Below the pieces are notes generated by a model that did no database searches, was not told the DNA's origin, and saw nothing but the letters and a program-made list of their open reading frames with translations. Shown piece after piece: positions 7,001 through 62,186 of a stretch of 64,000 nucleotides of DNA (the stretch's first letter is position 1; every line of letters starts with the position of its first letter). The translations under genes were made by a program, and so were the position numbers. The stretch is from Naegleria gruberi (Eukaryota), in assembly GCA_000004985.1 (NCBI GenBank), contig GG738867.1, one strand, 5' to 3'.

Positions 7001-7453
7001 ATTTTCCTCATCTTCCTCATTTTCAGTTGTTTTGTCATTTTGGTTAATTTCTTCCTCTTCTTCCTCGTCATCACTCGAATCAATAGAAACACATTCTATA
7101 TTATTATTTACATTTTCATTATTATTTAGATTAATTGAACTTTCTGATTCCTCTGTAATATCAATAACGTTATTTCCTTCTCTTGTTTCTGTGGTTTGTT
7201 CCGAAGTCGTTTTGGCATTCTTATTTTCCTTGTCATCTCGATTTTCTTCTTCGGTATCATCCAATGCAATACTATCACCTGATTCCGATATTACATCTTC
7301 AAATGTGGGAGAACTTGTTCGATCATCTTGAATAATTTGTGGTGGTGATGAATTCAAATCCACATCACAATCTTCATCTTCTTGTTCATTTGATTCAAAA
7401 TCAATCGATTCCTCATTTATTATTTCTTGTGGTTGTTGTGTTTCATTTTGCAT
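4038..7453 (-). CDS. Large protein of about 1124 aa. The N-terminal half is acidic and contains a 2OG-Fe(II) oxygenase-like (P4H-type) core; the C-terminal roughly 560 aa are uncharacterised. Exons 5765..7453 and 4038..5720; intron 5721..5764 (GTAAGT..TCTCTAG, 44 nt).
   Basis: ORF 5747..7453 and ORF 4038..5663 join in-frame through a canonical 44-nt intron (...HQRST / VEHTGNAGVSASKFYTSACLVIIPKRTFG...). The N-terminus has D/E-rich tracts, then YKLLLYEEDGHFQFHRDSEKEENMFATLVVHLPSIYTGGELTVKH...YRLALVYNIF. This parallels the HxD...H...R facial-triad arrangement and is similar to the oxygenase core of the 26360..28913 gene (RYKEGNFFKPHMDSHF). The ATG at 7451-7453 has an A-rich upstream context. Confidence 0.5.
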
Positions 7454-9808: not shown

Positions 9809-10523
9809 ATGTCCACCACAACTGCCTCTGTTCAAAACAATACTAACGGACTAGATGAAGATAAGTCACCATCTTCTTCGACCAAGGTCAAACTCTTTGA
9901 TCGATTGCAAAACAAGATCTCCAATAGAAATTCAGTAACTGTCGATACAAGCAATAATTCCACACCAAAAACATCTTCTGTAAAGAGAGGACTCTCAATG
10001 ATGCTCTCTAAAAAGACCTCTAGTAACCTGCAATCGGAAATCAAGAAGGTGTCTCCAACTTCTGAAGGATTAGCAGAGTTGAAAGAATCAAGATTAACCA
10101 AAACTAGATCAGGTTAGTTTTAGCATAATCTAAATTTCTTCTGACAAGACATTCACAAAATTATAATCCAATCATCATTTCGGAATGTTCATATATTATT
10201 ATGTACAATACAGTTTCTATCATGGTTCCAAAATTTTCATTAGCAGATAAGCAAGGAATAAGGTAAGTTTGTTACATTATTGATTATGAAGGATTATTAA
10301 TATTGATCAAATGAATTGATATCAATATATTGATAGCAAGGAAGCATCTGAAAGAGCAAGATTATTCCACTCACAAATGCATCAAAGAAAACAGAAAGCA
10401 GGAACAAAGGCTTCATTTTCACATTTAATAGTTAAAAGATCAGCAGGAGGTTCTTCTTTGGCAACCAAACGATCCATCAACACTGCTGACATGCAACAAT
10501 TTGGGTCTTTTTTTACAATGTAA
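9809..10523 (+). CDS. Hypothetical Ser-rich basic protein of about 180 aa. Tentative structure: join(9809..10112, 10214..10262, 10337..10523).
   Basis: ORF 9809..10117 (MSTTTASVQNNTNGLDEDKSPSSS...) ends at a GTTAGT donor. Two canonical introns (GTTAGT..ACAG and GTAAGT..TGATAG) extend the frame without a stop to ...KRSAGGSSLATKRSINTADMQQFGSFFTM*. No domain was recognised. Confidence 0.35.
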
Positions 10524-10687
10524 ATATACAAATCCACTTTTTAAAAGCCACAATGTCAATCCGCTATATTATCCGTGTCTTATCTGTTGTTCACTTTGAT
10601 TGTTATTAATTGGTTAATCATCATATGTAAATAATGAATTGATAATAAAAATACAAAAACTAAATTCAATTAAAAATAATTAAAAAA

Positions 10688-26359: not shown

Positions 26360-28913
26360 ATGGAAAGAGTTTCGCCTCATGTTCATCTCTTGGCAAATAT
26401 TTGGGAAAATGAAAATTGTAAACTTCCTATCATTATTGAAAAACATAAAGAAGAAGATTTAAAATCATCGCCATTATCTTCTAAAAGAATTGATTATTTA
26501 ATTCCGAATCAGAAACTATTGATCAATTCAAATATTTATTCAATTGATTTATTAAGTAATGATGCAAATTGTGATGATAATAATAATACATCTCCAATTG
26601 ATGATGGAATTAATCATCATGATGGGAATGAATTAGAAGAAATTACTTGTCTTGATCGATTGTTTGTGTTGGAAGAGGTTTTATCGAGGGAGGAATGTCA
26701 AGATTTGATCAATGTGACTAATGAATTAGGTTATCGTTCGATTGATAGAGAATATTCGAAAGAGTATAGAAATAGTGAGAGAGTAGTGGTAACTAGTAAG
26801 AAAGTAGCAGAAATATTGTGGAATAGGATAGTGTAGGTTTTACAGTTTGGTTCATTTACTGATAAATTCGAATAGACCATTGATGAAGAAGGAAGATATT
26901 GCTAATGTGAAACCATACGGATTTGATAATAACGGGAAATGGATTCCAATAGAATTATCAGAATGTTTGAGATTTAACAGATATAAGGAAGGAAATTTCT
27001 TTAAACCTCACATGGATTCTCACTTTGTCAGAAATGACAATGAGAGAAGCATATTTACCATTCTTATTTATTTAGATGATTCTCCTTACGGTACTACCTT
27101 TTGGAAAAAGATTCCAGACGAAACAAATGAGGAACTTGCCAGCACCAAAATGAATTTCAAGAAATTATTAACAGTTCAACCAAAAGCTGGATCCATAGCA
27201 ATATTTAATCATGATATTTATCACTCTGGAGATTTTGTAAATGAAGGGTACAAATATGTTGTCAGAACTGAAATGATTTTCAAGAGAATAGATCCAGAAA
27301 GTGTATATAGACAAGATTATAGAGAAACAGCAGAATTTCAAAAAGTGAAACAATTAGTGGACGAAAGCAATCAATTAGAGAAGGAAGGAAATTTAAAGCT
27401 TTCCACCCAAAAATATATTCAAGCCCATGAATTACAAACTACAAAAGCCAACAGTATCCAAAAGGTTAACATTTCTAACAGGATTGGGCAATTACCAGAA
27501 GAAATGTTCCTTCTCATATTTTCATTTATGAAAACAGAGGAAATTTCAAACTCTTTCATCAAACTTGATAGAAACCTGAACTCTATCACAAGACACTCAA
27601 AGGTTTGGAAGGAAAGATATTGTCAAAAGTGGTCAGACAAACCCAAAGTCCCTCTCAACAAAGCAAATGGATTTAAACGAGATTATTACTATCAAATGGA
27701 TGATGACGAAATAGTTGAAGAAGGAACAATCTACTCAATGGAAAATGCAATCACCATTCAACATGAACAAACACTGGGAGATTGGTATCATGCCTTTGCA
27801 ATGAGATCTAATCAAGAAAAATTTATGGAAGTTGTATTGCTAGATTTTGTTGGAGGCAATTATAGATATGGACTTTCAAGCCAATCATTGTTTTACGTTT
27901 CGCCTGCCTCTTGTGGAATACCGAATCATCCTCATTTCTCTCTTGTGGGTTATGATTATCAGAGTATCCTTTGTGGTGATAGGTATTTTGTATCTGCTTT
28001 CCAGTGTGATGATCTTCCACTAATGGAAAGGAATGGGCAAATATTAGACATGCGTAATTTTAAAGAAATGATTACACAGCTTTACAGAGATGATCTGAAA
28101 AAGAGTATGGCTACTCCTCTATTGATTTCCATTCCAGTTGTGTGGACAGATAAACAATTATCAGTAGTTAGTACTGAACTGGTAAGTTATTTATTAATAC
28201 TGGATTAAACAGTTTATTTAAAGATTAACATGGGATTGGATGTAATATTTATTGATGAGGCAAAACTCAGGTCATTTTACTATCAGAAACCGAATTGTTT
28301 AATCATAAAATTGACAGAAAATGGAATTTATTTCATTCCAGTTAAGGAAAATGAGATGGTTAGAAAATATTATCATTTAAAAGATATGAAAAATCAAACC
28401 AGCTACCCATACCCATCAATTCTAAAAATCGCTTTCATTCCATCTGTTGACATAATTGACGAAACAGTCTTGAATGTTGAACCAATAGATATTGGAACAC
28501 ATTATAACCCAAAGATAGTTGGGAAAGAAGAAAGAGTCAAATTAGGAACAGAAATATTATTACAGGTAACAAATGCAATAGAAGAATATAAGAATTGTAT
28601 AGAAAATTGGAAAAGCAGAAATGTGACTGATAATATAATAGTTGTTGGAGAGTTTGCTCATTTGGAAAATATGAAATCCGTAGTTATTGGCCTACTCAGC
28701 AAAAATTTTCCAAATAGTTCCATTACGTATCAAGAAAATCACTTAGACAAGACGGTCAAAATTATTAACGAAAACAGTAGAAAGATGGGATATAGAGGAG
28801 GTTCTTTTGATGTTGTGGGTGGAGCAAAGATAATTTGCAGTTTGAGTAACTTTAGGGAGGATTATTATGAAAAACGTTCTAAAAAGAAAGAAAAGCGATG
28901 CACAATTGCCTAA
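26360..28913 (+). CDS. Three-module protein of about 824 aa: an N-terminal prolyl-4-hydroxylase-like 2OG-Fe(II) oxygenase, an F-box, and a C-terminal actin-related-protein (actin-fold) domain. Structure: join(26360..26832, 26876..28181, 28224..28913).
   Basis: ORFs 26360..26836, 26847..28208 and 28230..28913 join in-frame through a 43-nt intron (GTAGGT..CGAATAG, phase 2) and a 42-nt intron (GTAAGT..TTTAAAG, phase 0). The oxygenase core reads RFNRYKEGNFFKPHMDSHF...SIAIFNHDIYHSGDFVNEGYKYVVRTEMIF (HxD...H...R). The F-box reads LPEEMFLLIFSFMKTEEISNSFIKLDRNLNSITRHSKVWKERYCQKW. The actin-fold signatures are MEVVLLDFVGGNYRYGL (phosphate-1-like DxxGxxxxxG), TELINMGLDVIFIDEAKLRSFYYQKPNCLIIKLTENGIYFIPV (compare actin [42 protein letters not shown]) and a C-terminal GGSFDVVGGAKIICSLSNF (compare actin WIGGSILASLSTF). 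Confidence 0.5.
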
Positions 28914-31864: not shown

Positions 31865-34093
31865 TTAATCACTATCACTGGAATCGTCACTACTATCCGA
31901 AGCACTATCGCTAGAGTCATCACTATCTGAATCACTACTATCAGATTGGACCTTAGTTGCCATTTCTTTAAGGTACACCTTTAAATCTTCTGCTAATTGA
32001 GGCAGATCAATAAGCAACCAAAAGTTAATAGCGAATCTAACAACTTTAGGATTATCCTTAGGGAATAATCCAGTAAAGAATGGTTTTTGAGTTTCATTGT
32101 ACAATAATCTGTTCTTGAGGGCTTCCATTCCAAATTTTTGTTGTAACTCTTGGAAAAGAATTTTGAGGAAAATTCTACTGTATGATGTGGTATCGGATTC
32201 TGTTATTTTAACAGCAGAGAAAATGGACCACGAAATGGAATCTGAAACTAATAAATGGCTGAATAGCTTTGCAATATTTCTGAGTCTACTTGTTTCGTAT
32301 CTGTGGAGAATTTGATATTGCAATTGGAAGCATTCTTCAAAATCACGTTTGAAGACATCTTGAAGTTGGCAGAATCTTTCAGCCAAAGAACCAAAGAAAT
32401 CCAAATAGCTTCTCTCCTGACTACAACATTCAATAATCATAGAACAAACTTCCATATCATGTTCCTTAGCAAGACCTGACTTTAACAGTTTGTGGGCTGC
32501 TTCTTCATATCCCAAAGAAGACATAATAGTAAGATAGATCTTTCTCTTGAGATCTGTTGACCCCTCATCAGTTTTAGTCTTTGGATCCAGAAGGGTATTC
32601 TTTTGGCCTTCTGCGTTAATTTGAATTTCTTGAACTCCTCCAAATGCCTCATCACTATGAGCTTGAGGTTCTTCCTCTCCTCCCACTTCTTCTTCTTCTT
32701 CCTCGCCTAGAATCTCTTTTTTAATTTCCTTGTATCTTTCCTCATTTTCTTCAAATTCTTCATCAAATTGGAAAATGTCCAAATTATCCTCTGTGTCAAT
32801 ATCTTTTGAAATTTCGATAGCATCATGAGTGATTCTATCATCATCCTCAACAAGATCCAACTCCTCCGTTATTGATGGATAGTCCTTGAATTCAAGTTTT
32901 CTGATATTAAACAATGATTCTATTTGGTATTGTACACGTCTATCAATTTTTCCTTCATGTAAAATATTTCTGAAAGCTTCAAAAACAGCAGAGAGAATTT
33001 TTGGTGCTACTTCCAAAAGAGTTTTACCACATTCCTTTACAAATGTCACACCTAGTTCTACAGAATCATTTGTTGAATTTTCCAATAGCAAGGAAAGTAA
33101 TTGTCCAGCCAAAATTTCACTTGCAACTTGTTGGTTTACCAAGTGAGCAATAAAGTGACAAGAAGCAATGCACTTTTGCTTGTCATTCCTGCTGAATGAT
33201 TTTACAAATTGGCTTACCAGACGCTTAATTAATAATTCGCCTATTTCTGGAATCCTGGTATTAACGACTGAGATCAGAGCAGAATAAACATTACTAAATT
33301 GGATTGATGCAAGCTGAGCCTTCATAATTGCTCTAACTAATAATCCTTTTCCTCTAATGATATTTTCAGAAAACAGTTCAGGTAACACATCAGCAATATT
33401 AGCAGAGTTGACCTTGTTTACAATACCATTGAGTGTTTTCTTAAGGGCTTCCCAGTTCAATTTTTGAAATTCCTCACTCGATTTGTCGGTATTTTGTTGC
33501 AACTTTCTCAATTTGAATGGAGGAATGTACACATTATCAGTTTTTGGTGTACTCTCCTCTCTTCTATCATTTCTTCTGTCATTGTCATATCTATTGTCAC
33601 GACGTGGTGGTCTATCATCATATCTTCTATCCCTTCTATCATAATTTCTATCGTCTCTTCTATAATCATCCCTCCTATCATCTCTTCTATCATAATTATC
33701 CCTAGAATATCTTCTATCATCTCTTCTATAATCGTCTCTCCTATCATAATTTCTATCATCCTTTCTGTAATCACTTCTATCATCACGTCTATCATATGAT
33801 TTTCTATCCGATCTCCTATCATCATTTAATCTACGTTCATTATGGGTTCTATCCTCATAATCCTTCCTCTTGAGATCATTCTCGGAAGCAGAAGCTTCAA
33901 CAGATTGTTTAATTTCAACCTTCTCCACAACATTATCATTACTATCCACTACATCCTCTTTTGTTTCTGATGATGATGGTGGTGGTGATGATGAAGGAGG
34001 TTGTGCTGTTGTATTTGTATCACCTGATTCTTGATCCAATTGTGAAGGTGATGGCGGAAGAGCATCATTATCACCTGCGGCACTGTTGCTCAT
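31865..34093 (-). CDS. Pre-mRNA splicing factor CWC22 homolog (MIF4G + MA3 domains, RD/RS-like N-terminal tract), 742 aa.
   Basis: A single ORF. The N-terminus carries an RDD/RRD/DRR dipeptide-repeat tract (DRRSDRKSYDRRDDRSDYRKDDRNYDRRDDYRRDDRRY...). A MIF4G region (NWEALKKTLNGIVNKVNSANIADVLPELFSENIIRGKGLLVRAIMKAQ...) and an MA3 region follow, in the same order as CWC22/nucampholin. The C-terminus is acidic and Ser-rich. The ATG at 34091-34093 follows an A-run. Confidence 0.8.
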   Translation of the reverse strand: MSNSAAGDNDALPPSPSQLDQESGDTNTTAQPPSSSPPPSSSETKEDVVDSNDNVVEKVEIKQSVEASASENDLKRKDYEDRTHNERRLNDDRRSDRKSYDRRDDRSDYRKDDRNYDRRDDYRRDDRRYSRDNYDRRDDRRDDYRRDDRNYDRRDRRYDDRPPRRDNRYDNDRRNDRREESTPKTDNVYIPPFKLRKLQQNTDKSSEEFQKLNWEALKKTLNGIVNKVNSANIADVLPELFSENIIRGKGLLVRAIMKAQLASIQFSNVYSALISVVNTRIPEIGELLIKRLVSQFVKSFSRNDKQKCIASCHFIAHLVNQQVASEILAGQLLSLLLENSTNDSVELGVTFVKECGKTLLEVAPKILSAVFEAFRNILHEGKIDRRVQYQIESLFNIRKLEFKDYPSITEELDLVEDDDRITHDAIEISKDIDTEDNLDIFQFDEEFEENEERYKEIKKEILGEEEEEEVGGEEEPQAHSDEAFGGVQEIQINAEGQKNTLLDPKTKTDEGSTDLKRKIYLTIMSSLGYEEAAHKLLKSGLAKEHDMEVCSMIIECCSQERSYLDFFGSLAERFCQLQDVFKRDFEECFQLQYQILHRYETSRLRNIAKLFSHLLVSDSISWSIFSAVKITESDTTSYSRIFLKILFQELQQKFGMEALKNRLLYNETQKPFFTGLFPKDNPKVVRFAINFWLLIDLPQLAEDLKVYLKEMATKVQSDSSDSDSDDSSDSASDSSDDSSDSD
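33530..33830. repeat. Coding low-complexity repeat (the RD/DR/RY dipeptide-repeat tract of CWC22), repetitive at the DNA level.
   Basis: Reiterated tct atc a(t)(c) units on the plus strand encode the Arg-Asp repeats on the minus strand. They generate spurious overlapping ORFs on both strands (33464..33799, 33508..33825, 33517..33705). Confidence 0.6.
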
Positions 34094-36770: not shown

Positions 36771-38548
36771 ATGTCATTTATTAATAATACCGAAACGTCT
36801 GACCATTATTCATCATCAGAGTCATCATCCTCATGTAGTAGTTGTATAATTTCTGCTACAACACCACCATCATGGGATAAATATCCAAGGAAAGTTTTCA
36901 CATCCAAGAAGAAGAAGGATTCAACAACTCTTTCAAAAATTGAAATTTTATTAGAAAAAGGTGAAGGTTTATCTATTAGAAAGTCATCAAAGGCTACCAG
37001 TTCTCCATTTGTTGTACTTTCCATGTGTCACGATGCATTCGTCTCACAAAAACGATTAGAATCGTCAAATGTAAAGAATTCACTCGATCCAATGTGGAAT
37101 GAAGTTTTTGAATTTGAAGTTTCTCCAAGTGTAAAGGAAAAGGGAAAGGTTGAAGAAATTTTATCTATTCAAGTGTGGCACAAGGGTGTTTTTAATAATG
37201 GAGTGGACACTTTCATGTAAGTTTTTTTGTTATTCGAAATATTTCGGATAATTCTAAAATGATGTTGTGAAATAATGATATTAATTTGTAGGGGTGCTGC
37301 CAATGTTCCACTTGTTCATTTGGTAGAGAATCATCTTCATACAATGGTTCTCGATTTAATTGGTGTTGAAAGAGGTAAAATTCATCTTCATATCATTCCA
37401 AGAGGATTTGGATTTAAAACAATTGATGAAAAGAATACCTATGTTTTGAATGGTACTAAACAAAGTGCAGTTTTCCAATTGACTAATTCAGATGTTTTGA
37501 GAATTAAAGAAGCTAGTGCTGGAATGATTAGTGCTGAAGTTTCTGTTGATACAAAGAAGAGATTAAGAAAGATGCAACAATATAAAATTGTTGAAAAATT
37601 ACAAAAGGGTGGTTTTGGCACAGTTTTTAAAGGTATGTTCTTGATTCTTATCAATTATTCAATAATTTGTTGACATTTAAATTTCTCATTATTTCAGTAA
37701 TTGATTTGGAGGACAAGACATCAACTCCTGAAAAACCAAATTACAAAGCCATGAAAAAGGTTAAATGTGATACAGATTATGAAGCCAATCAAGCCATTCA
37801 AGAAGTTTGGTATATCAGAAATTTAAAGAATCAAAACTTGGCCTCCTACGATGACATGTTCTTGGAATTTACAGAAGATGAAAATACTAAAGAGATTGCA
37901 TTCAATGTCTGCTTTGTCATGCCATACTATAAGGATGGAGATTTGGATAATTTGATTTTAAAGAGAAGACAACAACGTAAATTCTTCTCTGTTCATCGAT
38001 CCATTAGTTACATGCTTCAAATGGCTAAGGGTATTGAGTTTTTACATTCCAAGAGAATTATTCACAGAGATTTGAAACACAAGAATGTCTTTTTAACAGA
38101 TAATTACAATACTTGTAAAATTGGTGATTTTGGTTTTTCTAGATCAATTAATGAAAAATCACTTGCTTACACAACACTTGGTACTACGAATTATATGGCT
38201 CCTGAAATTGGTGTCAAGACTAGTGGACAACAAATTAATGGTTATACATTCTCTGCTGATATTTGGAGTTTTGGAGTAATGTGCTATGAATTATTGACAC
38301 TCAATTGTGGTGTTAAAGGTTTTTCACATTATACCAAAGCTTTGGCTAATTTTGAAAAGTATGTGGAAAAGATTAGTGAAGATATGCGTAAGATTTATGC
38401 TAAACAAGATGATGTTGTGCAGTTTGTTTTGGCAATGTTAAAGGTAAACCCAACTGAAAGATTATCAGCTGAGGAATGTGTTGAACAATTAGAAGTTCTT
38501 TTACAAAAGTACGAAGAAACAGCAACACCATCTGTATCTCAACAATAA
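36771..38548 (+). CDS. Ser/Thr protein kinase with an N-terminal C2 domain, about 520 aa. Structure: join(36771..37216, 37292..37632, 37695..38548).
   Basis: The C2-like region reads LSIRKSSKATSSPFVVLSMCHDAFVSQKRLESSNVKNSLDPMWNEVFEFEV. The kinase has a Gly loop KGGFGTVFK / V (split by a 62-nt phase-1 intron, GTATGT..TTTCAG), plus YKAMKKV, HRDLKHKNVFL, IGDFGFS and GTTNYMAPE. The first intron is 75 nt (GTAAGT..TTGTAG, phase 2). ATG 36771 (MSFINNTETS) is the first ATG in the track ORF. Confidence 0.7.
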
Positions 38549-44262: not shown

Positions 44263-44511
44263 TTTTTTTCTAAAGAACTTTACAATACACGAAAGAGTAA
44301 TCAATTGACACTTAGAACTTTAATAAATACATTATTGCATATGATGTGAGAACTTGGCTAATGTCATTTGGATTAAATACTTGGTTGACCAAATATTTAA
44401 CATTGGCGGCCCGAAAATGTCGCTCTATTTCCATTCTAAACGTTGAATTGGATAGCTCCCGCCATATAGAATATAACATTTCACATGTCAACTTTTGGCT
44501 CCATCAAAAAA

Positions 44512-46677
44512 ATGTCAAACAAACGAAATCTAATAGTGGTTATACTACTGACAGTAGTATTGCTATGTATTTCATCAGTGTACACCTTCACTGTGGATAA
44601 ATATTTTGATTTTAATGATGGAGTAATGTCAATTCAACAACAATCAAGTCAGGATTTGACAAGTTTATCAATTCGGAAGAAATTAATGGAAAGCACAGTA
44701 ATTGGTGTGAATGATTATTTTGCAATTTATTTGTGGAAAGACAAAATGATAAAAACTTACAATATGAGTCAATCACCTCAAAACCTAGACGAATTTGTTC
44801 AAATTATTCGAAACTCTAACGCCACCATGAGGTTAGCAGTAACTACTACTTTGAAACCATGGGTTGAATCATATGGCTACCTCTACGGATTTGATTCTAT
44901 TAGAAAACAAGTTAATTATGAAGATTTAACACCAGTTTCTGATTGTATAAAATCAGATAACATGATTGAAAATGATGGCTTTATTGGAACTGCATCGAGC
45001 ATTTCATCTGCAGTGAAAGCTCACAAAATGATTTATCCAGAGAGGAAATCTGAATTGGAATTGAGAAATTTTTATTCGCTTCGTTACATTCCTAAAAGTT
45101 TAGTTGTGGCATCGAGTGTTTCAATGGAGCAAAATGTTGAATTCCTATCGAATATTATTGACAATAATATTGGATATTTAAATGCTTCTTCTCAATGTGG
45201 AACACCTCAAGTTCTTTCTAGAGATGCTGCTTGGGCAAGATATGGATTCTCATTTGTTAATTTCACAGTTACTGATATTCGAAACGTTGAAAGAATGTAT
45301 AATATTTCAATTAATTTTGACAATAGATATGCAAATACAGTGATTGAGAAGTATAGAAACTATGTCTATTTCAATGAGAGTATGAGTTCAGTTCTGAAAC
45401 AAATGTCAGATTCATCATGTATGCAATGTCCATATGAATTGTGCTATGCTTTCGGTTCACAAGATTATGCTTCATATATTGGTGTTGGAATTGCCATATT
45501 CTATTTTATATTGCTGTTTTCACTGGGAATGTTCAGATCATATTCTCTCAAGAGAAGATTATTCGTTCCTTATTTACCTTTATTTGGAATATTGAGAAAT
45601 TTTTCAAATACTCAAATGTTGTCTGCATCCTGCCAATCTGTTTCTAGACCAATGGCTCTATTTGCTTCAATAGTGATTATTGCTGTATACTTTTTTACGA
45701 TTATGAGATATGTCTATATGAGGAACATGTATTCATTCCTTTCCAATTCGAATAAGAGTACCGCTTTCCACAAGAGAATTTTATCAATTCCATTCGCACT
45801 TTCAATGTCCCTTGCTTTCATTTTAGTACTTTCAATCATTGTAGTTTTACCTCCAACTGTTGCTTTTGAAATATTCAATGACAATAATATTATTAATGGT
45901 GTTGGAGCTGGAGTAATTTTCCTTTCTCTAATTTCAAGTGTGAGCTTTTTGATGGTTGACTTATTTTTGAATAGGAATAATATCAAAAGATATGGAATTT
46001 TAAAGTTCTTGTTCTTTGATGATCCAATTTATCTCAGAATTGACATTGCCTTCCAAGCCATGATTCTCATCTTTTTGATTCTCTACATTTCAGTCTCATT
46101 TGTTGAAACCATATTTCCAGCAATTATGGATGTTTGCATCTCAATATCAGTCATTCTCATTTGTGGAGGAAACGCAATGATTATTGAGATCTCTAAAAAG
46201 ATCATCTACAAGGACAGAACTGCTCAAACCCAACAATCAGATCTGGAAAATCTAATGGAGAAGAATAAGGAATTTTACACACTAATGAGTGAATATTCAA
46301 GGAAGGAATTTTCATATGAGAACGTTGCCTTCTACGATGCCATTTTGGATTACAAGAGCTCACGTAAATCCCTCTCATTAGATGACTTGAAAAGGATTGA
46401 AACAGAATTCATACATCCCTTCTCAAAGTATGAAGTGAATCTGCCATCACAAGTGAAGAAGGATCTCTCCTCTCTCATTCAAGACCTTTCTGTTCCTTCG
46501 AATCAATCAGATCATGAGACTAAGATCAAGACAAGAAAGCATCAACTCATAGAGACCATGTTTTTAGAGTTGTGTAAAAACCTTACAGATACCTTCCACC
46601 GATTGAAACAAACTCAACAATATTCACAATGGTTGGCTGTTTACCAACTTCAAAAGGAAAATTCTCTCAATGTCTAA
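44512..46677 (+). CDS. Seven-transmembrane receptor with a C-terminal RGS domain (7TM-RGS). A signal peptide and a large N-terminal ectodomain precede the 7TM bundle; about 721 aa.
   Basis: A signal peptide/anchor (MSNKRNLIVVILLTVVLLCISSVYT) and an ectodomain of about 300 aa are followed by seven hydrophobic helices (YIGVGIAIFYFILLFSLGMF ... AIMDVCISISVILICGGNAMII). The RGS-like signature reads EFSYENVAFYDAILDYK...IETEFIHPFSKYEVNLPSQVKK...LIETMFLELCKNLTDTFHRL (compare the RGS consensus EFSEENLxFWxACExFK...IYxEFI...APKEVNID). An upstream ATG at 44485 is also in frame. Confidence 0.65.
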   Translation: MSNKRNLIVVILLTVVLLCISSVYTFTVDKYFDFNDGVMSIQQQSSQDLTSLSIRKKLMESTVIGVNDYFAIYLWKDKMIKTYNMSQSPQNLDEFVQIIRNSNATMRLAVTTTLKPWVESYGYLYGFDSIRKQVNYEDLTPVSDCIKSDNMIENDGFIGTASSISSAVKAHKMIYPERKSELELRNFYSLRYIPKSLVVASSVSMEQNVEFLSNIIDNNIGYLNASSQCGTPQVLSRDAAWARYGFSFVNFTVTDIRNVERMYNISINFDNRYANTVIEKYRNYVYFNESMSSVLKQMSDSSCMQCPYELCYAFGSQDYASYIGVGIAIFYFILLFSLGMFRSYSLKRRLFVPYLPLFGILRNFSNTQMLSASCQSVSRPMALFASIVIIAVYFFTIMRYVYMRNMYSFLSNSNKSTAFHKRILSIPFALSMSLAFILVLSIIVVLPPTVAFEIFNDNNIINGVGAGVIFLSLISSVSFLMVDLFLNRNNIKRYGILKFLFFDDPIYLRIDIAFQAMILIFLILYISVSFVETIFPAIMDVCISISVILICGGNAMIIEISKKIIYKDRTAQTQQSDLENLMEKNKEFYTLMSEYSRKEFSYENVAFYDAILDYKSSRKSLSLDDLKRIETEFIHPFSKYEVNLPSQVKKDLSSLIQDLSVPSNQSDHETKIKTRKHQLIETMFLELCKNLTDTFHRLKQTQQYSQWLAVYQLQKENSLNV

Positions 46678-47354: not shown

Positions 47355-47598
47355 TTTTCTTTGAGTAAAAAATTAGAGAGGAGTTATCGCTACTGTAATA
47401 GGATGGTACAATATAGAGAATAAGGAAATGCTGAGGCAAAAGAAAACGACGCGACCCTGTAATCTTCAAAATAATATGATCACAAGGTTCAACAAATATC
47501 AACCATAAAACAGTAGGCCTTATTTGACTGATATTGTTATTATTTTGCTGTAAGCATAATATAAGGTTTCAATAAGGGAACTCTTTTTTAAATGTGAA

Positions 47599-47679
47599 GC
47601 GGTCTTGACCGAGTGGTTAAGGTGATTGACTAGAAATCAATTGGGGAGACCCGCACAGGTTCGAGTCCTGTAGATCGCG
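47599..47679 (+). tRNA. tRNA-Ser (anticodon AGA), class II tRNA with a long variable arm.
   Basis: The acceptor stem is GCGGTCT/AGATCGC with one G-U pair. Other elements are the D-arm, anticodon stem ATTGA/TCAAT with loop CTAGAAA (anticodon AGA), a 13-nt variable arm (TGGGGAGACCCGC), T-arm ACAGG-TTCGAGT-CCTGT and discriminator G. A T6 run (AAAGCTTTTTT) lies 3 nt downstream, typical of a pol III terminator. Confidence 0.9.
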
Positions 47680-47817: not shown

Positions 47818-50654
47818 CTACTCAGAGAATAGTGAATAATTATTCAAGTCAAGAGTTTTACAAGCAAGTGATAACTCTTGTTGCTGGTTAAGAAGAGCAA
47901 TTTCGTCATTGTCTTTCAAATCTTCAAGACTGTGAATTGCACACAAGTTCTCTTTTAACCTTATAAACTCCAAGCTTCTGTCATTAAGCTTAATTTTCAA
48001 CAATTCTATCAAATCAGAAATATTTCGAATATTGAGAGAAATCGACACAACAGCTCCTAAATCACATTCGTATAAGTAAGCAAATATTCTTCTTACACGA
48101 TTTTGAAGTTTCAAATGTGGTACAATATTAGAAAGCTCAATGACACACGAACCTTCTGTTTTCATGGCCCAAAAAACTCTCGAATTGTTTTCTTCAACAA
48201 TCAGAGAGTAGTCAATTAGAGGAAGAACATACGAGTTCACAATTGCATAACAAAAACCACCTCCAGTAACTCCAAAACCAATTCTGTCAGTTATATCAAC
48301 AGGAGGAAGGTACTGTTTTGACATTTTTGTGCCATCGGATTTGCACTCAATAGTCATTAACCCAGTTCTCAAACAAAAGGAAATAGTTTTGTTTCTAATA
48401 TCATCTTTGTCAACGTTTTCGGATGTGCAACCCATGAACAAGAATTCCAAATTTCCTTTTCTTTCCAGTATTCCTAGCTCGATATACCCAATCGTGAACT
48501 TATTCAAGGAAGCATTCAATGGAATGCCATTAGTTGAAATGGACACTTTAGAACTGGATCCAGATTGGATAAATTTCTCATTGCTTGTGCTTTCATTCCC
48601 TTTCAGGGTCTGGTCTGTTAACTGTTGTGATACATTTTCTAAATAGTGGTGAATACTTATTCCATGTTTTCTCATCTCTAAGCAGGTGAAATTGCCATTT
48701 TCAATATCTATATCATGAGATACGTGATTTTCATTACGAAAACACTGGAAACAAATCTTCTTATTGCAAGTTTTACATACATAATGCCAAAAATTACAAG
48801 AGCAAGAGCCTAAACATGTCCCATAGTATGAAGAACTAATCAGAAGAGGATATTCTTGATTGAAATCTTCTAATAATTCCTTAATTCTTATAGCTAGCTC
48901 AATCTTCTTTTTAGCATTATCGTCGTTAGAGGTACGATATCTGTATATTGTTTCTTCTGCTCTGTAATTGAAACATGTTTGGAAAGTTTTTTCTAATTGA
49001 TGAGGTTGTGCCAACTCAATTGCTGATTTAGTGAATTCTATTTCAATACTTGAAATAAATGATGAAAGAACTTGGAAAGGAAGGTAAGGTATACACAAGG
49101 CAGCAATTTCCAACCACTTATTACAAGAAGGGTGCTCCCTCCACAATAGTACACATTGTGTAAGGAAATTTCTTTGCGCAAACAATTTACGTGCCTTAAA
49201 GCTTTTACATAAAAGATTCCATAAGAATTCGCCAATGAAACTCTTGTTGTTAGCCTTGGAAATCTTTGATTCCTCACAGAAAATTCGAAGATCTGAATCT
49301 AAGATAGAGGAAATAACAAGTTGGACTGAATTGTGACTATGTAAGGCTTTTGTAAGAATTTGAAGGATTAAGGAGAATTTTTCAGTTTCTTCACTTGTCA
49401 ATCTTTCAATATTCTTATTGAAAGAAGAAAATTGAGAGGCCACCATTTGAATTCCATCATTTTCACTGACAAAGGAGTTTAAATAATCCTTTTCATTAAT
49501 CCAACTATTGATAATATTTAAACTTCTAACTGAAATTTTCATTGATTTCATGCAAGCGGCTGACAACAAAGCAATAAATGAGTCGTTACATTTCGATATA
49601 TCATTATCATTCTTGTTTTCTATCATATTATCCCAGGTTGTAACAATTGGGTGTTGTAACAATTCTCTTGCTTCCAACCTGGAATCAGCATCGCAAACCA
49701 TCAACTTCATTACCTGCAAACTAGCTTTATCTGTCAAAAGTCTTGCAAGAATTTGTTGATAAGTCTTTACAAACCATTGATTACTTTGGACATTTATCAA
49801 CGAATTAATATCTAATTTTCCGTTTACCATTATTGCTAATTTTGCAAGGTTAGTTCTGTAATCTTTTTCTGGTAAACTTGCTAATACTTGGACAAAGATA
49901 ATTCCCAAAGAATAGACGTCCACTTTGGGAGTGTAGCTTTTTGTAAAAACTTCAGGAGCTTGATAGAAAACATCTCCAGCAATAGTTTTTGCCTTTGATT
50001 GATGAGCCTGTAATTGAGTGCCAACTCCAAAATCACCAATTTTAACTTCAACCTTATCCAATCCTTCCAACAGAGAATTTGTTAAAAGACTAGCATCATA
50101 TTTAACCATAATATTGTTTGGTTTTAAATCTTGAGTAAAATAGTTTTTTAAAAAGTTGATAAAGAAAACATACCTCTATGAATGATTTTCAACTCGTTCA
50201 ATTCTTTCAAGACATGTAACATTTTAATGAACCATTGGAAAGCAACTTTGGCAGAAACTTTGATATTTTCCTTTTTTAGTCGTTCTAAAATTTGATTCAA
50301 GTTTCCTTGACAAACTTCCATTCTAATACACAAAAACACCTTACTTATATCCTCTACTTTGGTAATTGGAGAAGTTTTCAAGAGTTTATAGTCATAAATC
50401 TTTACTATATTTGGATGTTCACATTCTTGAGCCAATTTAACTTCTTTTATAATTGAACTTGAATTTGTTTCAGACTCTTCAATAACTTTGAGTGCAAATT
50501 CTTCATTCGAATTAACGTCACGAATCAAATAAACAGATCCAAAATTACCACTTCCTAACGTATCAATCAGATAATACTTTTTATCTGCATAATTAATAAC
50601 CTTATAGGTTGATTTGGTGGTACTGGTCGACTCTTTTGATTTCGATAAACCCAT
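47818..50654 (-). CDS. N-myristoylatable Ser/Thr protein kinase with a large C-terminal region containing a Cys/His zinc-finger-like cluster (divergent UBR-box-like), about 923 aa. Exons 50174..50654 and 47818..50129; 44-nt phase-1 intron (GTATGT..CTCAAG).
   Basis: The protein starts MGLSKSKE... (Gly2, Ser6 myristoylation context). Kinase motifs are LGSGNFGSVYLIRD, FALKVIE, IIHR / DLKPNNIMV (split by the intron at the same codon position as its paralog), KIGDFG and APEVF. The C-terminal cluster is ...CLGSCSCNFWHYVCKTCNKKICFQCFRNENHVSHD.... Confidence 0.7.
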
Positions 50655-50679
50655 TTTTTTAATCTTAGTTGTTTAAAAA

Positions 50680-50945
50680 TTTTTTCACGTTTTCACGTTT
50701 TGATTTTTAACAAGTTGAAAAATGGAAGATCTTTTAAATAATTTTTTGATATATTAAGGCCACAAAACTGAGCGTTGATACAATAAATTTCATTCGACAT
50801 CATGAACAAGATTGAAGTGTCCTTTTTTTAAAACGTGATTGACTTTTGACATGTTCTAAGTCATTGTTATTTTCATTAGTGATGACAGTAACCTTAAACA
50901 AAAAATACATATAGAAACGTCCCAAAGAAGACTTCACGTTTTCGT
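50680..50945. promoter_or_regulatory. Shared divergent promoter region between the two paralogous kinase genes. It contains four copies of the octamer CACGTTTT (two tandem, one inverted, one direct).
   Basis: CACGTTTT occurs at 50686..50693, 50694..50701 and 50935..50942, with the inverted copy AAAACGTG at 50830..50837. The whole intergenic region is about 346 bp, between the start codons at 50654 (-) and 51001 (+). Confidence 0.3.
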
Positions 50946-51000
50946 TTTAGAATGGTTAAATAGAATTAAATTGTCACAACAATTTTATCAATGATAAAAA

Positions 51001-54000
51001 ATGGGTATTCTCAATAGCAAGGAAAGTCTTCCCAAGACTACTACCACCATCAGTAACACAATTGCAGAGATTGAAAAGAAGAAAGCTGTACCATCAAAAA
51101 AAGAAGAAACAGTTTCGTTTAGATGTTTCAATACAAATTGGTCTCTCATACGATCATTGGGAGAAGGATATTTTGGAAAAGTATATGAAGCAAAAGATTT
51201 GACTACTGGTTCTCAATTTGCTATCAAAATTGTGAGATTTGAAATTGCAAATGAGGAGTTAGCTCGAAGAGAAGTTGAATTTTCCAAGAATATTGATAGT
51301 TCAAACGTTGTCAAAATCTTTGATAGTGAAGTGATGGACAAGGATCCAACCACTGGTCTTCCATCGAATGGTTGCAAGTTTTTGGTTATAAAGATGGAGC
51401 TTTGTCAAGGAAACTTGAATGACATTCTAATTCAATTAATAAGTAGCAATCAAACTCTTAGAATTGATGTTGTTTTTGTTTGGTTTTTCAAAATGCTTGA
51501 TGTTTTGTGCGACTTTGAACAAAATAATTTAATTCACAGGTAAGTTTGAGCAGGTAATTGAAAGAAACTTGAATTGTTTCATACAGAGATTTGAAACCAT
51601 CTAATATAATGATAAAGTATGAAGGTTCTTCCCCAACAGAGTTTGAGAAAATTCAACTCAAGATTGGAGACTTTGGATTGGCAAAGAAAATGAATGGGAA
51701 CTATTCTAATGTTGGTACTTCAATATTTAAGGCTTTGGAAATTATTGAACAAGAGGAGTATGACACAAGAGCTGATGTTTATTCTCTTGGAATGATACTG
51801 TTGCAAGTTAGTTTATTGATTTCTGAGGGTACACTTGCTGAAAAAATGTTAATTATTGTATCTAAATATGAAACAGGTCCCTATGAAACTTCTTTATGGC
51901 GTATTTTACAAGATAACAAAAGATTGAATGAATTCTTTGGAGATGTTTTTTATGATTTAACTGATCCAGGTACAAAAGAACTACTCAAACAAATGATTTG
52001 TGTTGTTGAAAAAAGATTGAAAGCTTCAGAGTTACAAAATCATCCAATTGTAAAGACTTGGAAGAAAGTATTAGCTTATGGACCAAACCATAGAGAAATT
52101 GATTTGTTTGAGTTCAATAACGCACCAAACGGTAATTTGGTAATCCTTGGGCTCGTTCCATTGATCAAGATTGTTTCCAAGCCGTCTGTAGTTTTAAGGG
52201 CCTTGTATGTTCTAGAAAGAATATTTTCTGATAGTACTAAACTGAAAGAGAGATCAGAGTATTTTATTATTAATGGTGGTATAGAGGTGGTTATTGGATA
52301 TGTCAATTCACTTATTAAAGCACTAGTACCAAACGATAAGTCATCCAATTCGAAACCAAAAAAGGAGTTGATTGAAGAGATAAAATCACACACTATTAGT
52401 AGTTTGATCACCACTAATGCATCTATTAATGACAAGGTTAAGACAGGATGGAATTTGTCAGTCAAATTAATTGCTTCAATATTGGAAAATAGTGACAATT
52501 TACCTTCTGAAAGACTTCGATTATTGAGTGCATCACTTAGAAGAAGTGGATTGTTTGATCTAATATCATCTTTGAAAAAGATTGATGATAAGGAAAAGCT
52601 GGCAGTTGAAGCAGTTGTTCCTGTTGTAAAGATTATCTCATTCATGTGTAAACACAATATAAGCGTAAGAAGCAATTATGCAAAGAAAAGTTTCATCGTT
52701 GCACTTTTGTCATTATTGGTATCAGATGGAATGGACGAGTTGAAAGGTGACATTATCGAAACAATTGCTCTTGTTGTTCCTTACATTGATGGAAGTGATG
52801 AAAAACTTGAGTTACTTGGTTTTTTTAAAAACTACTTTTTGTCACTTTCAATGCAAATGGCTGAACCTAGCTGTTTGATAGCTAATGAACAAGTATTTGA
52901 ACAATACATTGACAAACAAGATGATCCCGTTGAAGGGTTATTATTGAGAAGCAAACTTGCAATGATGGTTTCAGATTACAAACAAATTTTAAGTAGATCG
53001 TACTATGGATTATGCTCTAATGTTGATAGATCAGATGACCATATCAAGATGTGGTGGTTTAGATGTAAAACATGTTTTGCAAATGATCCATCTCTTGGTT
53101 GCTGTTTAACATGTGGCTATAAATGTCACCTTGGTCATAATTTGTCTCTTCAATATTCATCATTTTATTGTGACTGCCATGTAGGTGAAGAAACAATACA
53201 AGGACACACATGCCAATGCAAACCTAGTCAGGGATCCTTATTACCTCACTTGTCCTCCTTCAAATTGACTAGTCCAATTTCCGGTTTTGTTTCTGAAGGA
53301 TTACTTCTTTGTTTAAAGGAACAGGATCAAGACAACCATTCTGATTTTACAATCATTAATTTTGGGGAAGAATCAACAGCAATCTCCAACCAACCAATAG
53401 TTTCTCTCAATAAGGTAAACGAAGCAGAAAGAGAAGAAACCATTGGCTATTTTTCAATTAAAGTCCTTTCCACTGAGTTCGACGACTTGAAGATTGGTAT
53501 TAGCACTTCAGATTCCAAGTCCATAGAAAAAATTACTGAGATAGACACAAATAACAGTATTACATATGATTTATCAAATGGTAATTTAATCATTGGAAAA
53601 AACTCTTTCGTTTATGGACCAGAGGGATACTCAACGTGTACTGTTGGCTTTGGTATAACAAACATGGGTAGAATTTATGTCATGTTTGATAGTATGGCAC
53701 TGCCACTAATCACTCATCAAACGCTGAATGATGGAAATGTTTTTGCTGTTATCAGAGTGGCTGGAACAAGTATTCTGAAATTCTCTTGTGATACTCCGAT
53801 CATAGACGCCCCACAAACTATTTCTTTTACATTAAAACCAGTGGTAAAAAAGGAGGTTGACCTTGATACCAAAGCTAATGACGAGATTGTGAATACTGAA
53901 TCAAATGTTAGAGTTGAATACTCTGTTTCTCAGAATACCTCTGCTAAAGAACAGTTGAACAGCAACTCTTCATCAACAGGTCCGATTATTGAGAAGAAAA

Positions 54001-54227
54001 TCAAGGTAAGAAGATACGGAAAGAGCAAGGGAGGAGTTTTACTTACTTTAACTCCTGATCATAGTAAAGATACAATTCTTGATCTTGCAAGAACGAAACT
54101 GAAAGAGCCATCAATTGTTTCTCTTAGAGACGAAGAATGGATTGAATATGATTGTTTCCAAGATTTTGTTCAGAATAATGTGTATCAGGCGTTGACCAAA
54201 GAAGATGAAGATAAGGAAGAGTTGTAA
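51001..54227 (+). CDS. N-myristoylatable Ser/Thr protein kinase with a C-terminal UBR-box-like zinc finger, about 1059 aa. It is a paralog of the 47818..50654 gene. Structure: join(51001..51539, 51587..54227).
   Basis: The protein starts MGILNSKE.... Kinase motifs are LGEGYFGKVYEAKD, FAIKIV, LIHR / DLKPSNIMI (47-nt phase-1 intron, GTAAGT..ATACAG) and KIGDFGLAKK. The C-terminal cluster is YGLCSNVDRSDDHIKMWWFRCKTCFANDPSLGCCLTCGYKCHLGHNLSLQYSSFYCDCHVGEE, which fits the UBR-box pattern (C..RC.TC...C..C....H.GH....CDC). Confidence 0.7.
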
Positions 54228-59943: not shown

Positions 59944-60203
59944 TTTTTTGATGAATTAAATAGGAAACTAATGTAATTTAATAAAATTGCAACAAAACGT
60001 GCATCTCTTTCAGAAATGGGATTTTTCTCTTGGATGTATTGAGACGATTAGCCAAAAAGAAATACTACTAATCAACCATTCTTCTGTATTTCTAATATCT
60101 CCATAAAAGGTCCATACTTATTCGAAAGCCCACTTTAATTTTCATTGTAATCTCAAAGATTTTCTCAAATTCTTCCGTTCTGATTTTGGAAATAGTAAAA
60201 AAA

Positions 60204-62186
60204 ATGCAACAACACAACAATAGCAGACGTCTCGATATTCTCTTGTCCCATTTATTTCCCTCCTCATCATCATCATCATTAACGGTGATGCGATCAGGAG
60301 ATGAAAATTCTCAACTCTATTCGAATACTTGTTCCGGTCAATCAAATAATAATGATCTTTCATGTGCTAAATGTACAGCATTTTCCTCAACACAATTCAA
60401 AGAGGAAATGATTAATAGATATTATACTCCTGAACAAGCAAAGATAAGACAAGATATTTATGATTTGGTTAAGGATAATCCACTCTTTGAAAGAAAATAC
60501 GGACTTTCAAAAGAACAAGAAAGACAATTGACTCATGATCGTGCTGTGTATATTATTCAGAAATTGAGACCTTTTGAACTTGAACATTTTAGAACTGATC
60601 CAAAGAGATTCTTTACTTTTTTAGATACTGTTAATAATATTGATTTTGGAGTTGCTGGAAGAAGTATGATTCATTTTGGGTTGTTTGGTGGATCTGTTCT
60701 TTATTTTGGAACTGAAAAGCATAAACAATTCCAAGATAGAATTGTTAATGATTTTGGAAAGATTTTTGGCATGTTCTGTATGAGTGAAATTGGACATGCT
60801 TCAAATGTACAACAAATTGAAACACTGGCAATTTATGATCATCAATCCAAGACAATTAATATTCGTACACCAAGTGATTCTGCTGTTAAGGTTTGGAGTG
60901 GAGGTGCTGCTCAATTTGCTCAGTGGGCTGTTGTGTTTGCTCAATTGGTTGTTGATAAGAAGTGTGGAGTTCATGCATTCTTAGTTCCAATTAGATCTGA
61001 AAAGGATCATTCAGTACTTCCTGGTATTAGAATCAGAGATTTGGGATCCAAGATTGGACTCAACTGTTTAGATAATGGAAGAGTTTGGTTTGATGTTAAA
61101 ATCTCAAAAGACTTGATGCTCGATAGATTTGGAACCATTGATGAAAATGGTCAATATAAGACATCAATTCCAGATGAAAGTGTCAGATTCTTAGCTCACG
61201 TTCAAGCATTGCTCATTGGTAGAATCATGACTGCCAGTTCAAGTTTGAATGCTCTTAAAATGGCTCTCGAAATCACTTTGAAGTATGCAGTTCACAGAAG
61301 GCAATTTGGCCCAACTAATTCAGGAGAGGAATTGCAAATTATCAATTATCTCAGTTATCAAAGAAGATTGTACCCATACCTTGCATTTTCCTTTGTCGCT
61401 CACTTCTCTGTTGAGGATTTGAAGAGAAAGTATGAAACAAATTCTGACTCCAAGATGATCCACACATTGGCTAGTTGTCTCAAAGCCAAATGTAGTGATA
61501 TCTCATTGCTAGGTTGTCAAGAATGTAGAAAATCCAGTGGTGCTCAAGGTTTCCTCAGTGCAAATAGAATTGGTGAAATGAGAGATATTGCCGATGCCTC
61601 AATTACATATGAGGGAGACAATAATGTTCTCTATCAAACAGCTTCTAGAAACTTGGTTAGAAGAAATACCAAAATACCATCTTTGGAAAAATTAACCTCT
61701 CTTCAAGATTTGGCTCAATTGCAAAAACTATTCGAATTCAGAGAGGCCACTATTGAAAAGCAGTATAGAGAAAAATTGGGTAAACTCTCTAAAACTCTTT
61801 CACCTTTCGAAGCTGCCAACAAAACTCAAGATCTTGCTCTCAAGTTAGGAAATGCTTATATTGAAAATAATATTATCAAGGTATTCCTACAAGAATCTTT
61901 GGGTAAATTATCTGAAAGAAACAAGAACTTGACTGAAATATTTACACGATTGGCTCTTTTATTAATTTACACTTGGATTCAACAAGATGGTTTCTTCCTT
62001 CTCCACGATTTGGTATCTAAGGAACAATATTCTCAACTTGACGATTCTATCAACTCAATTTGTCAATATTTAACTCCTTTCATTCCAACATTAGTTAATA
62101 GTTTTGGATTCCCTTCATTCTTGACCAACGTTGTTATGGGACCAAATCTTGTTGAAAATATGTCATACGACAAGATTTACAACTAA
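60204..62186 (+). CDS. Acyl-CoA oxidase (ACOX, peroxisomal-type), about 660 aa.
   Basis: A single ORF with ACOX signatures: CMSEIGHASNVQQIETLAIYD (compare the ACOX consensus E.GHGSNV.G.ET.A.YD), SAVKVWSGGAAQFAQWAVVFAQLV, LVPIRSEKDHSVLPGIRIRDLGSKIGLNCLDNG and KYAVHRRQFGP. The first ATG is at 60204; the track start at 60186 is TTG. The C-terminus (...DKIYN) has no obvious PTS1 tripeptide. Confidence 0.85.
   Translation: MQQHNNSRRLDILLSHLFPSSSSSSLTVMRSGDENSQLYSNTCSGQSNNNDLSCAKCTAFSSTQFKEEMINRYYTPEQAKIRQDIYDLVKDNPLFERKYGLSKEQERQLTHDRAVYIIQKLRPFELEHFRTDPKRFFTFLDTVNNIDFGVAGRSMIHFGLFGGSVLYFGTEKHKQFQDRIVNDFGKIFGMFCMSEIGHASNVQQIETLAIYDHQSKTINIRTPSDSAVKVWSGGAAQFAQWAVVFAQLVVDKKCGVHAFLVPIRSEKDHSVLPGIRIRDLGSKIGLNCLDNGRVWFDVKISKDLMLDRFGTIDENGQYKTSIPDESVRFLAHVQALLIGRIMTASSSLNALKMALEITLKYAVHRRQFGPTNSGEELQIINYLSYQRRLYPYLAFSFVAHFSVEDLKRKYETNSDSKMIHTLASCLKAKCSDISLLGCQECRKSSGAQGFLSANRIGEMRDIADASITYEGDNNVLYQTASRNLVRRNTKIPSLEKLTSLQDLAQLQKLFEFREATIEKQYREKLGKLSKTLSPFEAANKTQDLALKLGNAYIENNIIKVFLQESLGKLSERNKNLTEIFTRLALLLIYTWIQQDGFFLLHDLVSKEQYSQLDDSINSICQYLTPFIPTLVNSFGFPSFLTNVVMGPNLVENMSYDKIYN

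Follow-up and report, generated by a model that had tools for sequence, protein, structure and literature searches.

An old pair of divergent kinase genes with UBR-SPRY regions in Naegleria gruberi, members of a predicted membrane-anchored family

A 64,000-nucleotide stretch of the Naegleria gruberi contig GG738867.1 (hereafter the window, with a G+C content of 32.8%) hosts two large kinase genes, which we call A and B, arranged head to head. We read their products, with some but limited confidence, as old paralogs of an uncharacterised family of membrane-anchored kinases, in which a module composed of a UBR box and a SPRY domain would recruit substrates or partners. The predicted elements begin at the N-terminus with a Gly2 motif and a Ser/Thr kinase domain, which are followed by about 300 amino acids of helical linker, a UBR4-type UBR box, a SPRY domain of the RanBP9/10 type and a small conserved C-terminal domain. 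A first-pass annotation of the window had noticed the gene pair and proposed that the fusion of a kinase with a UBR-type finger was a novel architecture. Among public sequences, those of Willaertia magna, Balamuthia mandrillaris, Luapelamoeba hula and others already include the same combination of Pkinase, zf-UBR and SPRY, so this proposal of novelty does not hold.

We read the region between positions 47500 and 54600 and modelled each gene from its open reading frames (ORFs) plus one inferred intron. Gene A (47818..50654, minus strand) is composed of exon 1 (50654..50174) and exon 2 (50129..47818, including the stop codon) and encodes 930 amino acids. Gene B (51001..54227, plus strand) is composed of exon 1 (51001..51539) and exon 2 (51587..54227, including the stop codon) and encodes 1059 amino acids. 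The introns span 44 nt in A (50173..50130, minus strand) and 47 nt in B (51540..51586, plus strand), and both have GT and AG at their ends. The two genes lie on opposite strands and diverge from a shared spacer of 346 bp between the two ATGs (50655..51000), and their head-to-head paralogy, as first described, is confirmed by the ORFs and by the alignment of the two proteins. The regions that follow the kinase domains measure about 607 amino acids in A and 724 amino acids in B, and not 700-850 amino acids as originally estimated for the pair.

Both proteins begin with an N-myristoylation-type motif, MGLSKSK in A (50634..50654, minus strand; Gly2, Ser6 and Lys7) and MGILNSK in B (51001..51021, plus strand), extending to the protein starts MGLSKSKE and MGILNSKE. 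Each start combines Met-Gly with a small or uncharged residue 3 and with Ser at position 6, where the motif favors Ser or Thr, and lysine-rich stretches lie behind both M-G-x-x-x-S-K sequences. Gly2 together with Ser, Thr or Gly at position 6 is also kept in five homologs from Willaertia, Luapelamoeba, Balamuthia and a metagenome. On the basis of this motif, A and B are predicted to be N-myristoylated, in agreement with what had been suggested for both starts.

The kinase domains occupy amino acids 27-323 of A (49642..50576, minus strand) and 47-335 of B (51139..52052, plus strand), in both cases spanning the intron. They match the Pfam Pkinase profile (PF00069) with 152 bits in A (E = 2.4e-44) and 128 bits in B (E = 4.3e-37), far above the cut-off of 31.7 bits. 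Both proteins have a glycine loop, the lysine of VAIK and the HRDLKPxN, DFG and APE motifs, which read GSGNFGSV, FALK, HRDLKPNN, DFG and APE in A and GEGYFGKV, FAIK, HRDLKPSN, DFG and ALE in B, where ALE stands for APE. A and B therefore contain the canonical Ser/Thr kinase domains that had been assigned to them and, with these motifs intact, look catalytically competent. A search of the kinase domain against the Protein Data Bank (PDB) returned no specific kinase family, with CDPK, PKR/PERK/GCN2, ULK, DCLK and NEK kinases all matching at approximately 1e-17 to 1e-14.

The Cys/His cluster of B lies at amino acids 652-726 (53001..53225, plus strand). When we searched amino acids 640-1059 of B against the whole PDB with phmmer, UBR boxes alone matched the segment of the cluster, namely those of plant BIG (6e-8), human UBR4 (1.2e-5) and FBXO11 (1.7e-4). 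We also built an independent UBR profile. It was made of 32 UBR4-type boxes of unrelated proteins, to the exclusion of B and the two relatives closest to it, and B scored 63 bits against it (E = 1e-21). The Pfam zf-UBR profile (PF02207) taken alone remains below threshold on B (20.5 compared to 25.2 bits, E = 5e-4). In an alignment of 35 UBR sequences, 10 ligand columns are invariant and B conforms to every one of them, as it does to the last cysteine (C722), which is nearly invariant; its putative ligands are C656, C673, C676, C686, C689, C693, H694, H697, C708, C710 and C722, which we assigned with the zinc-ligand map from the structural paper on UBR4 (PMC10687169). The resulting pattern, C...CxxC...CxxC...CHxxH...CDC...C, ends in a cysteine and not in a histidine. 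The same replacement of the last histidine of UBR1/2 by cysteine characterizes the 'subfamily 2' UBR boxes, namely those of UBR4, UBR5, FBXO11/UBR6 and UBR7 (PMC10687169).

The alternative identities of the B cluster as a ZZ or B-box finger were rejected, since no such match occurs in Pfam at E <= 1 and the PDB matches are to UBR boxes only; on this check, which the first-pass annotation had proposed, both the spacing and the profile match are those of a UBR box. In the AlphaFold2 model described below, the core of the UBR box has a predicted local distance difference test score (pLDDT) of 88-93. Judging from its ligands and profile scores, the cluster of B is a genuine and complete three-zinc UBR box of the UBR4/BIG/FBXO11 subtype.

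The corresponding segment of A (amino acids 595-646; 48673..48828, minus strand) is assigned by positional homology to B. It keeps eight ligands, C599, C612, C615, C620, C623, H629, H632 and C643, and lacks the equivalents of three others (C693, C710 and C722 of B) and of D709. In particular, N628 is found where a cysteine precedes the first histidine, the CDC motif is gone (FTCLEM), and there is no terminal cysteine. The score of A against the UBR profile is approximately 0 bits, and in Pfam the segment reaches E = 0.12 with zf-UBR and E = 0.73 with B-box. According to the ligand maps of UBR2 and UBR4, it would have room for two zincs at the most, instead of three. The UBR-like cluster reported for both proteins is thus confirmed for B and not recognisable in A, whose segment is, as far as the alignment with B can tell, a decayed UBR box identified by its position alone. 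Since A lost one zinc site and the CDC motif, the paralogs appear to have diverged in what the module can bind.

Downstream of the UBR box, each of the two proteins has a SPRY domain and a conserved C-terminal domain, which add to the features described previously. The SPRY domain of B (amino acids 797-917; 53436..53798, plus strand) resembles those of RanBP9, RanBP10 and Gid1 and is supported by both profile and fold matches. In A (amino acids 705-831; 48118..48498, minus strand) it was located by alignment to the SPRY domain of B, with the residues GFG.T..G..Y....S..LPLI kept. A profile of 12 sequences covering the region from the UBR box to the SPRY domain matched two groups of PDB entries, one composed of SPRY proteins (RanBP10, 9e-24; RanBP9, 8e-22; SPRYD3 and yeast Vid30/Gid1) and one of UBR proteins (UBR4, 1.6e-13; BIG, FBXO11 and UBR5). 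We modelled amino acids 645-935 of B with AlphaFold2 from an alignment of 51 sequences and obtained a mean pLDDT of 68, with 66-89 over the SPRY domain. Both fold searches with this model returned SPRY-type matches only, the larger SPRY domain dominating. The domain thus has both the SPRY profile match (PF00622) and the beta-sandwich fold.

The conserved C-terminal domain, of about 70 amino acids, spans residues 981-1050 of B (53988..54197, plus strand), where it can be aligned to the C-terminal ends of the homologs from Willaertia, the metagenome, Luapelamoeba and Balamuthia, and residues 840-909 of A (47884-48093, minus strand). It has no match in Pfam, and a profile search of the PDB gave nothing significant. 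The helical linker between the kinase domain and the UBR box of B (amino acids 336-651; 52053..53000, plus strand) aligns with the Willaertia and metagenome homologs and has no Pfam match at E <= 1; its counterpart in A lies at 48829-49641 (minus strand). Overall, a Pfam search of A and B at E <= 1 returned the kinase, zf-UBR and SPRY domains only, in addition to the B-box hit in A. At this threshold, neither protein showed a RING, HECT, F-box or other ubiquitin ligase (E3) domain, and Pfam gave no match to LisH, CTLH or CRA in either of them. By their domain content, A and B are predicted to be kinases and not ubiquitin ligases.

We searched for the family exhaustively with HMMER, using the post-kinase region of B. 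The search for the fusion in other species, which had been suggested as a check, recovered the same architecture in Willaertia, Balamuthia, Luapelamoeba and metagenomes. Among the full-length relatives, the best one comes from a heterolobosean, Willaertia magna (KAL9650163.1, 1105 amino acids, start MGNSKTK, annotated as 'hypothetical protein'), and is 27-30% identical to B over 700-1000 amino acids. This relative, the base composition and the short introns would also fit a heterolobosean, perhaps Naegleria-like, origin of the window. Balamuthia mandrillaris has two entries (KAL6045647.1 and KAL6060927.1, of 1123 and 1156 amino acids, respectively, start MGGKPS), automatically named 'kinase that interacts with cdc31p'. 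The protein of Luapelamoeba hula (EukProt EP01087_P009393, 1099 amino acids, start MGGLMG) derives from a single assembled transcript. The metagenome contig k141_1999614 encodes a partial ortholog (P0151, 754 amino acids, start MGSSTSK) that is 38-40% identical to B. Several homologs exceed the curated Pfam thresholds for both zf-UBR and SPRY. Two kinase members have an N-terminal ZZ finger in place of Gly2, and one of them has HRNLKP in the catalytic loop. We found nothing relevant in the literature on the kinase-UBR-SPRY architecture, on the Naegleria kinome or on prenylated SPRY proteins. As far as the domain matches indicate, kinase-UBR-SPRY is a conserved, unannotated and unstudied family and not a unique fusion.

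A stop codon and a +1 frame change, adjacent to a G6 run (contig positions 2580-2592), divide the metagenome ortholog between two called genes (P0151 and P0009), and about 60-80 amino acids that B has ahead of its SPRY domain, after the UBR box, are missing there. An erroneous assembly, a short intron or a genuine deletion could account for this.

Proteins that combine a UBR-like finger with a SPRY domain exist also in kinase-less form. A homolog search with the family profile returned kinase-less SPRY proteins only, and a metagenome scan with a three-sequence alignment, run on generic kinase patterns, returned only unrelated kinases. All 13 kinase-less UBR-SPRY proteins that we examined end in a CaaX-like sequence, C-x-I-[F/I/L]. 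A predicted lipid anchor thus recurs across the two forms, because the kinase forms carry an N-myristoyl-type Gly2 and the kinase-less forms a C-terminal prenyl-type motif. The kinase-less tails have extra cysteines before the CaaX-like end (for example, CKCGKGKCIII), which suggests C-terminal prenylation, and several of these proteins are very AT-rich, with an apicomplexan-looking composition. Among the other sequences encountered, P0003 (1423 amino acids) and P0004 (993 amino acids), both from ENA contigs, have an unusual repeat architecture of 13-20 tandem UBR4-type UBR boxes.

To date the duplication in relative terms, we relied on the identity between A, B and their homologs. A and B align over nearly their full length with 25% identity (918 columns, E = 3e-58). 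In the kinase domain, A and B are 35% identical, compared to 44% between A and Willaertia, 38% between B and Willaertia and 39% between B and the metagenome ortholog. In the post-kinase region, A is 23% identical to B, compared to 37% for the metagenome ortholog and B. The Willaertia and metagenome homologs are nearer to A and to B than the two paralogs are to each other, which indicates that the duplication is old; these values do not support a recent duplication.

No family paralog adjoins the Willaertia gene or the ZZ-kinase gene at the loci examined. On the 5.5-kb metagenome contig k141_1999614, a divergent ORF with the start MGGNNTKPG lies within positions 1-320, its start about 140 bp upstream of the ATG of the B ortholog (318-2582), and it runs off the contig edge at YDIVRKLGSGA, which corresponds to the glycine loop of a kinase. 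The head-to-head pair of MG-kinases may be conserved in the metagenome organism.

In both A and B the HRDLKP motif of the catalytic loop is split by the intron. The two introns had been described as lying at the same place and in the same phase 1. Their small size and their location within the HRD loop are confirmed for both genes; the identical place and phase are not, as they lie 2 nt apart. Exon 1 of A ends with CAT AGA G, hence in phase 1 within the Asp codon, and splicing joins IIHR to DLKPNN, while exon 1 of B ends with CAC AG, hence in phase 2 within the Arg codon. Direct reading of the splice sites rules out an identical position, and no canonical alternative donor or acceptor removes the offset of 2 nt. 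There is no HRD intron in the Willaertia gene, in the metagenome ortholog or in the multi-exon Balamuthia gene. Because these other family loci are devoid of it, the nearly coincident introns of A and B appear to be specific to this genome. Their possible origins are a single ancestral intron with a later shift of 2 nt, insertion on two separate occasions, or an intron that the other lineages have lost.

The spacer between A and B hosts a 9-mer, TCACGTTTT, that was not part of the first-pass annotation. It has four exact copies in the window, all of them within the spacer (50685-50693, 50693-50701 and 50934-50942 on the plus strand; 50830-50838 on the minus strand), when 0.6 are expected per window. 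Two overlapping copies lie 30-47 bp from the ATG of A, one is in the middle of the spacer on the opposite strand, and one is about 60 bp from the ATG of B. In addition, both ATGs are embedded in the identical 11-nt context AAAAAATGGGT (50649-50659 and 50996-51006), which forms a perfect inverted repeat. Judging from the spacer, A and B probably share a bidirectional regulatory region with promoter function. Threonine-rich codons equidistant downstream of each ATG (50615-50628 and 51036-51049) form a second inverted repeat, with 86% complementarity.

In the reading that we favor, the myristoyl group and the nearby lysines would hold the kinase at a membrane, and the UBR box and the SPRY domain, as two peptide- or protein-binding domains, would present the catalytic domain with substrates or partners. 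That UBR-SPRY proteins with a predicted lipid anchor also exist in kinase-less form speaks for a ligand-binding role of the module itself at membranes. Several points weigh against this reading. Myristoylation, kinase activity, ligand recruitment and the co-regulation or co-expression of the pair were all deduced from sequence. The replacement of Gly2 by a ZZ finger in two members implies that membrane anchoring is not universal. The kinase fits no known kinase family, which leaves no guide to its substrates. Structure comparison speaks for the SPRY domain only, as this domain filled both fold-search lists. As for the arrangement of the pair, its conservation in the metagenome contig is read from a fragment of 58 amino acids whose sole significant BLAST segment is an 18-residue glycine loop (E = 0.023), and TCACGTTTT is absent from the homologous loci that we fetched.

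A different possibility, close to that of the first-pass annotation and unlikely in our view, is that the UBR box of B reads free N-termini and targets the kinase to proteins with certain N-terminal or neo-N-terminal residues, coupling N-terminus recognition to phosphorylation and not to ubiquitylation. Every zinc ligand of a UBR4-type box is present in B, and the solved structures nearest to it are those of BIG and UBR4, two proteins of the N-degron system. Moreover, Asp709 of B, within FYCDC, corresponds to the alpha-amino-binding residues Asp1715 of UBR4 and Asp150 of UBR2 (PMC10687169), the aromatic Tyr707 occupies the position of Phe1713 of UBR4, and the aspartate is kept in the closest homologs, that is Willaertia, the metagenome ortholog and Luapelamoeba. 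However, UBR3, UBR6/FBXO11 and UBR7 have UBR boxes and yet do not bind N-degrons (PMC5606531), and homologs named F-box protein 11 at their source carry the same FFCDCG motif, FBXO11 being a reported non-binder (PMC5606531). The residues that confer specificity on UBR4 are changed in B (Phe1671 to His665 and Lys1708 to Gln702). Furthermore, many members, including Balamuthia (Asn), both ZZ-kinase forms and most prenylated forms, have V, A, N, R, Q or E in the place of the aspartate, and A has lost it.

Since the aspartate is not conserved across the family, the reading of N-termini does not appear to be the conserved function of the module. For B itself we regard it as unlikely to quite unlikely. 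Quite unlikely is also the fuller scenario, in which the box of B would be a true N-terminus reader that steers a membrane kinase to proteins with certain native or protease-made N-termini, in a pathway that would run alongside the ubiquitin-ligase N-recognins and independently of them, conserved in heterolobosean and some amoebozoan amoebae, with A as a derived copy that would have lost this capacity.

Similarly improbable to us is that the UBR-SPRY region has no external ligand and acts as an intramolecular regulatory or structural module of the kinase, either autoinhibitory or for dimerisation. This would be consistent with the intact ORF of A despite the loss of the zinc site and of the CDC motif, with the wide variation of the putative ligand-contact residues over the family, and with the dimerisation of the isolated UBR box of FBXO11 (PMC5606531). 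On the other hand, kinase-less UBR-SPRY proteins with their own lipid-anchor motif occur in other lineages, where there is no kinase to regulate, and the nearest SPRY relatives (RanBP9/10, Gid1 and SPRYD3) are protein-binding. Finally, it is very improbable that the gene models, which depend on ORFs and one inferred intron each, are artifacts joining a kinase and a C-terminal region from separate genes or transcripts, or that one copy is a pseudogene, because unbroken ORFs of 763 codons in A and 878 codons in B run from the kinase C-lobe through everything downstream, the Willaertia gene (10001-13318 of the fetched locus) and the ZZ-kinase gene are single intronless ORFs, the single Luapelamoeba transcript contains kinase, UBR and SPRY, and both copies keep all catalytic motifs; the linkage of kinase and C-terminal region in one transcript, as initially assumed, is in line with these homologs.

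Recruitment of ligands to an anchored kinase, as we propose for A and B, can be compared with several known systems. The box of B shares with UBR4 and BIG the Cys/His ligand pattern, the aspartate that anchors the alpha-amino group and the adjoining aromatic residue. It differs from UBR4 in having His and Gln at the positions of Phe1671 and Lys1708, and A in addition lacks three ligands. The boxes of UBR4, BIG and FBXO11 are hosted in giant E3/E4 ligases or in an F-box protein, whereas that of B is part of a kinase of about 1000 amino acids with no E3 domain. Likewise, the UBR1-7 ligases carry a ligase module, while A and B have no RING, HECT or F-box in Pfam at E <= 1. The SPRY domains of A and B are similar to those of RanBP9 and RanBP10, of the CTLH complex, and of Gid1/Vid30; as LisH, CTLH and CRA were not found in A or B, nothing points to their membership in a CTLH/GID ligase complex.

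The ZZ domain of p62/SQSTM1 is a demonstrated N-degron reader outside an E3 ligase. It offers a precedent for a zinc finger that binds N-terminal residues on a non-ligase effector, with a ZZ instead of a UBR fold and on an autophagy receptor instead of a kinase. N-degron binding was demonstrated for p62, whereas for the box of B it is hypothetical. The two types of finger, ZZ and UBR, are compared in PMC10687169. Kinases of the Src family and some apicomplexan and plant CDPKs follow the same logic as we predict for A and B, in that a lipid anchor at Gly2 is combined with a kinase and with domains that select partners. These domains are SH3/SH2 or EF-hands in Src and CDPKs, and UBR, SPRY and helical linker, all C-terminal to the kinase, in A and B. 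CDPKs are among the top, though weak, matches to the kinase domain, and we found no specific kinship between the kinase domains. The homologs of Willaertia, Balamuthia and Luapelamoeba have the same full architecture, from Gly2 to the C-terminal domain; they differ from A and B in being single genes at the loci examined, with no head-to-head paralog seen in Willaertia.

To our knowledge, UBR boxes are known almost solely as substrate-recognition fingers of ubiquitin ligases. A complete UBR4-type box joined to a kinase and a SPRY domain, and conserved across distant amoebae, suggests that this finger was reused to target phosphorylation at membranes. If the box of B did read N-termini, recognition of the N-degron type would reach beyond protein degradation. 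If it did not, the family would be a natural test case for the role of boxes such as those of UBR3, UBR6 and UBR7. With a decayed and an intact box under a probably shared regulatory region, A and B also provide a built-in comparison. Several carriers of the family or their near relatives are opportunistic pathogens or kin of these, such as Balamuthia and Naegleria-like amoebae, and the kinase has no obvious animal orthologs.

Other genes could be recognised elsewhere in the window, together with many further long ORFs that have no Pfam match. A tRNA-Ser(AGA) gene (47599-47679, plus strand) lies about 140 bp past the stop codon of A. An ORF of 730 amino acids (44485-46677, plus strand) has several hydrophobic stretches resembling membrane spans and a C-terminal RGS domain (Pfam RGS, 5.7e-8). 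A 2OG-Fe(II) oxygenase domain (PF13640) occurs in two ORFs about 20 kb apart (5747-7453, minus strand; 26847-28208, plus strand). The window also encodes an acyl-CoA oxidase (60186-62186, plus strand), a phosphoglucomutase (24270-26153, minus strand), a MIF4G/MA3 protein (31865-34093, minus strand) and a fragment of a cytochrome P450 (7630-8805, plus strand). An unrelated protein kinase, at 37667-38548 on the plus strand, is about 27% identical to the kinase domain of A.

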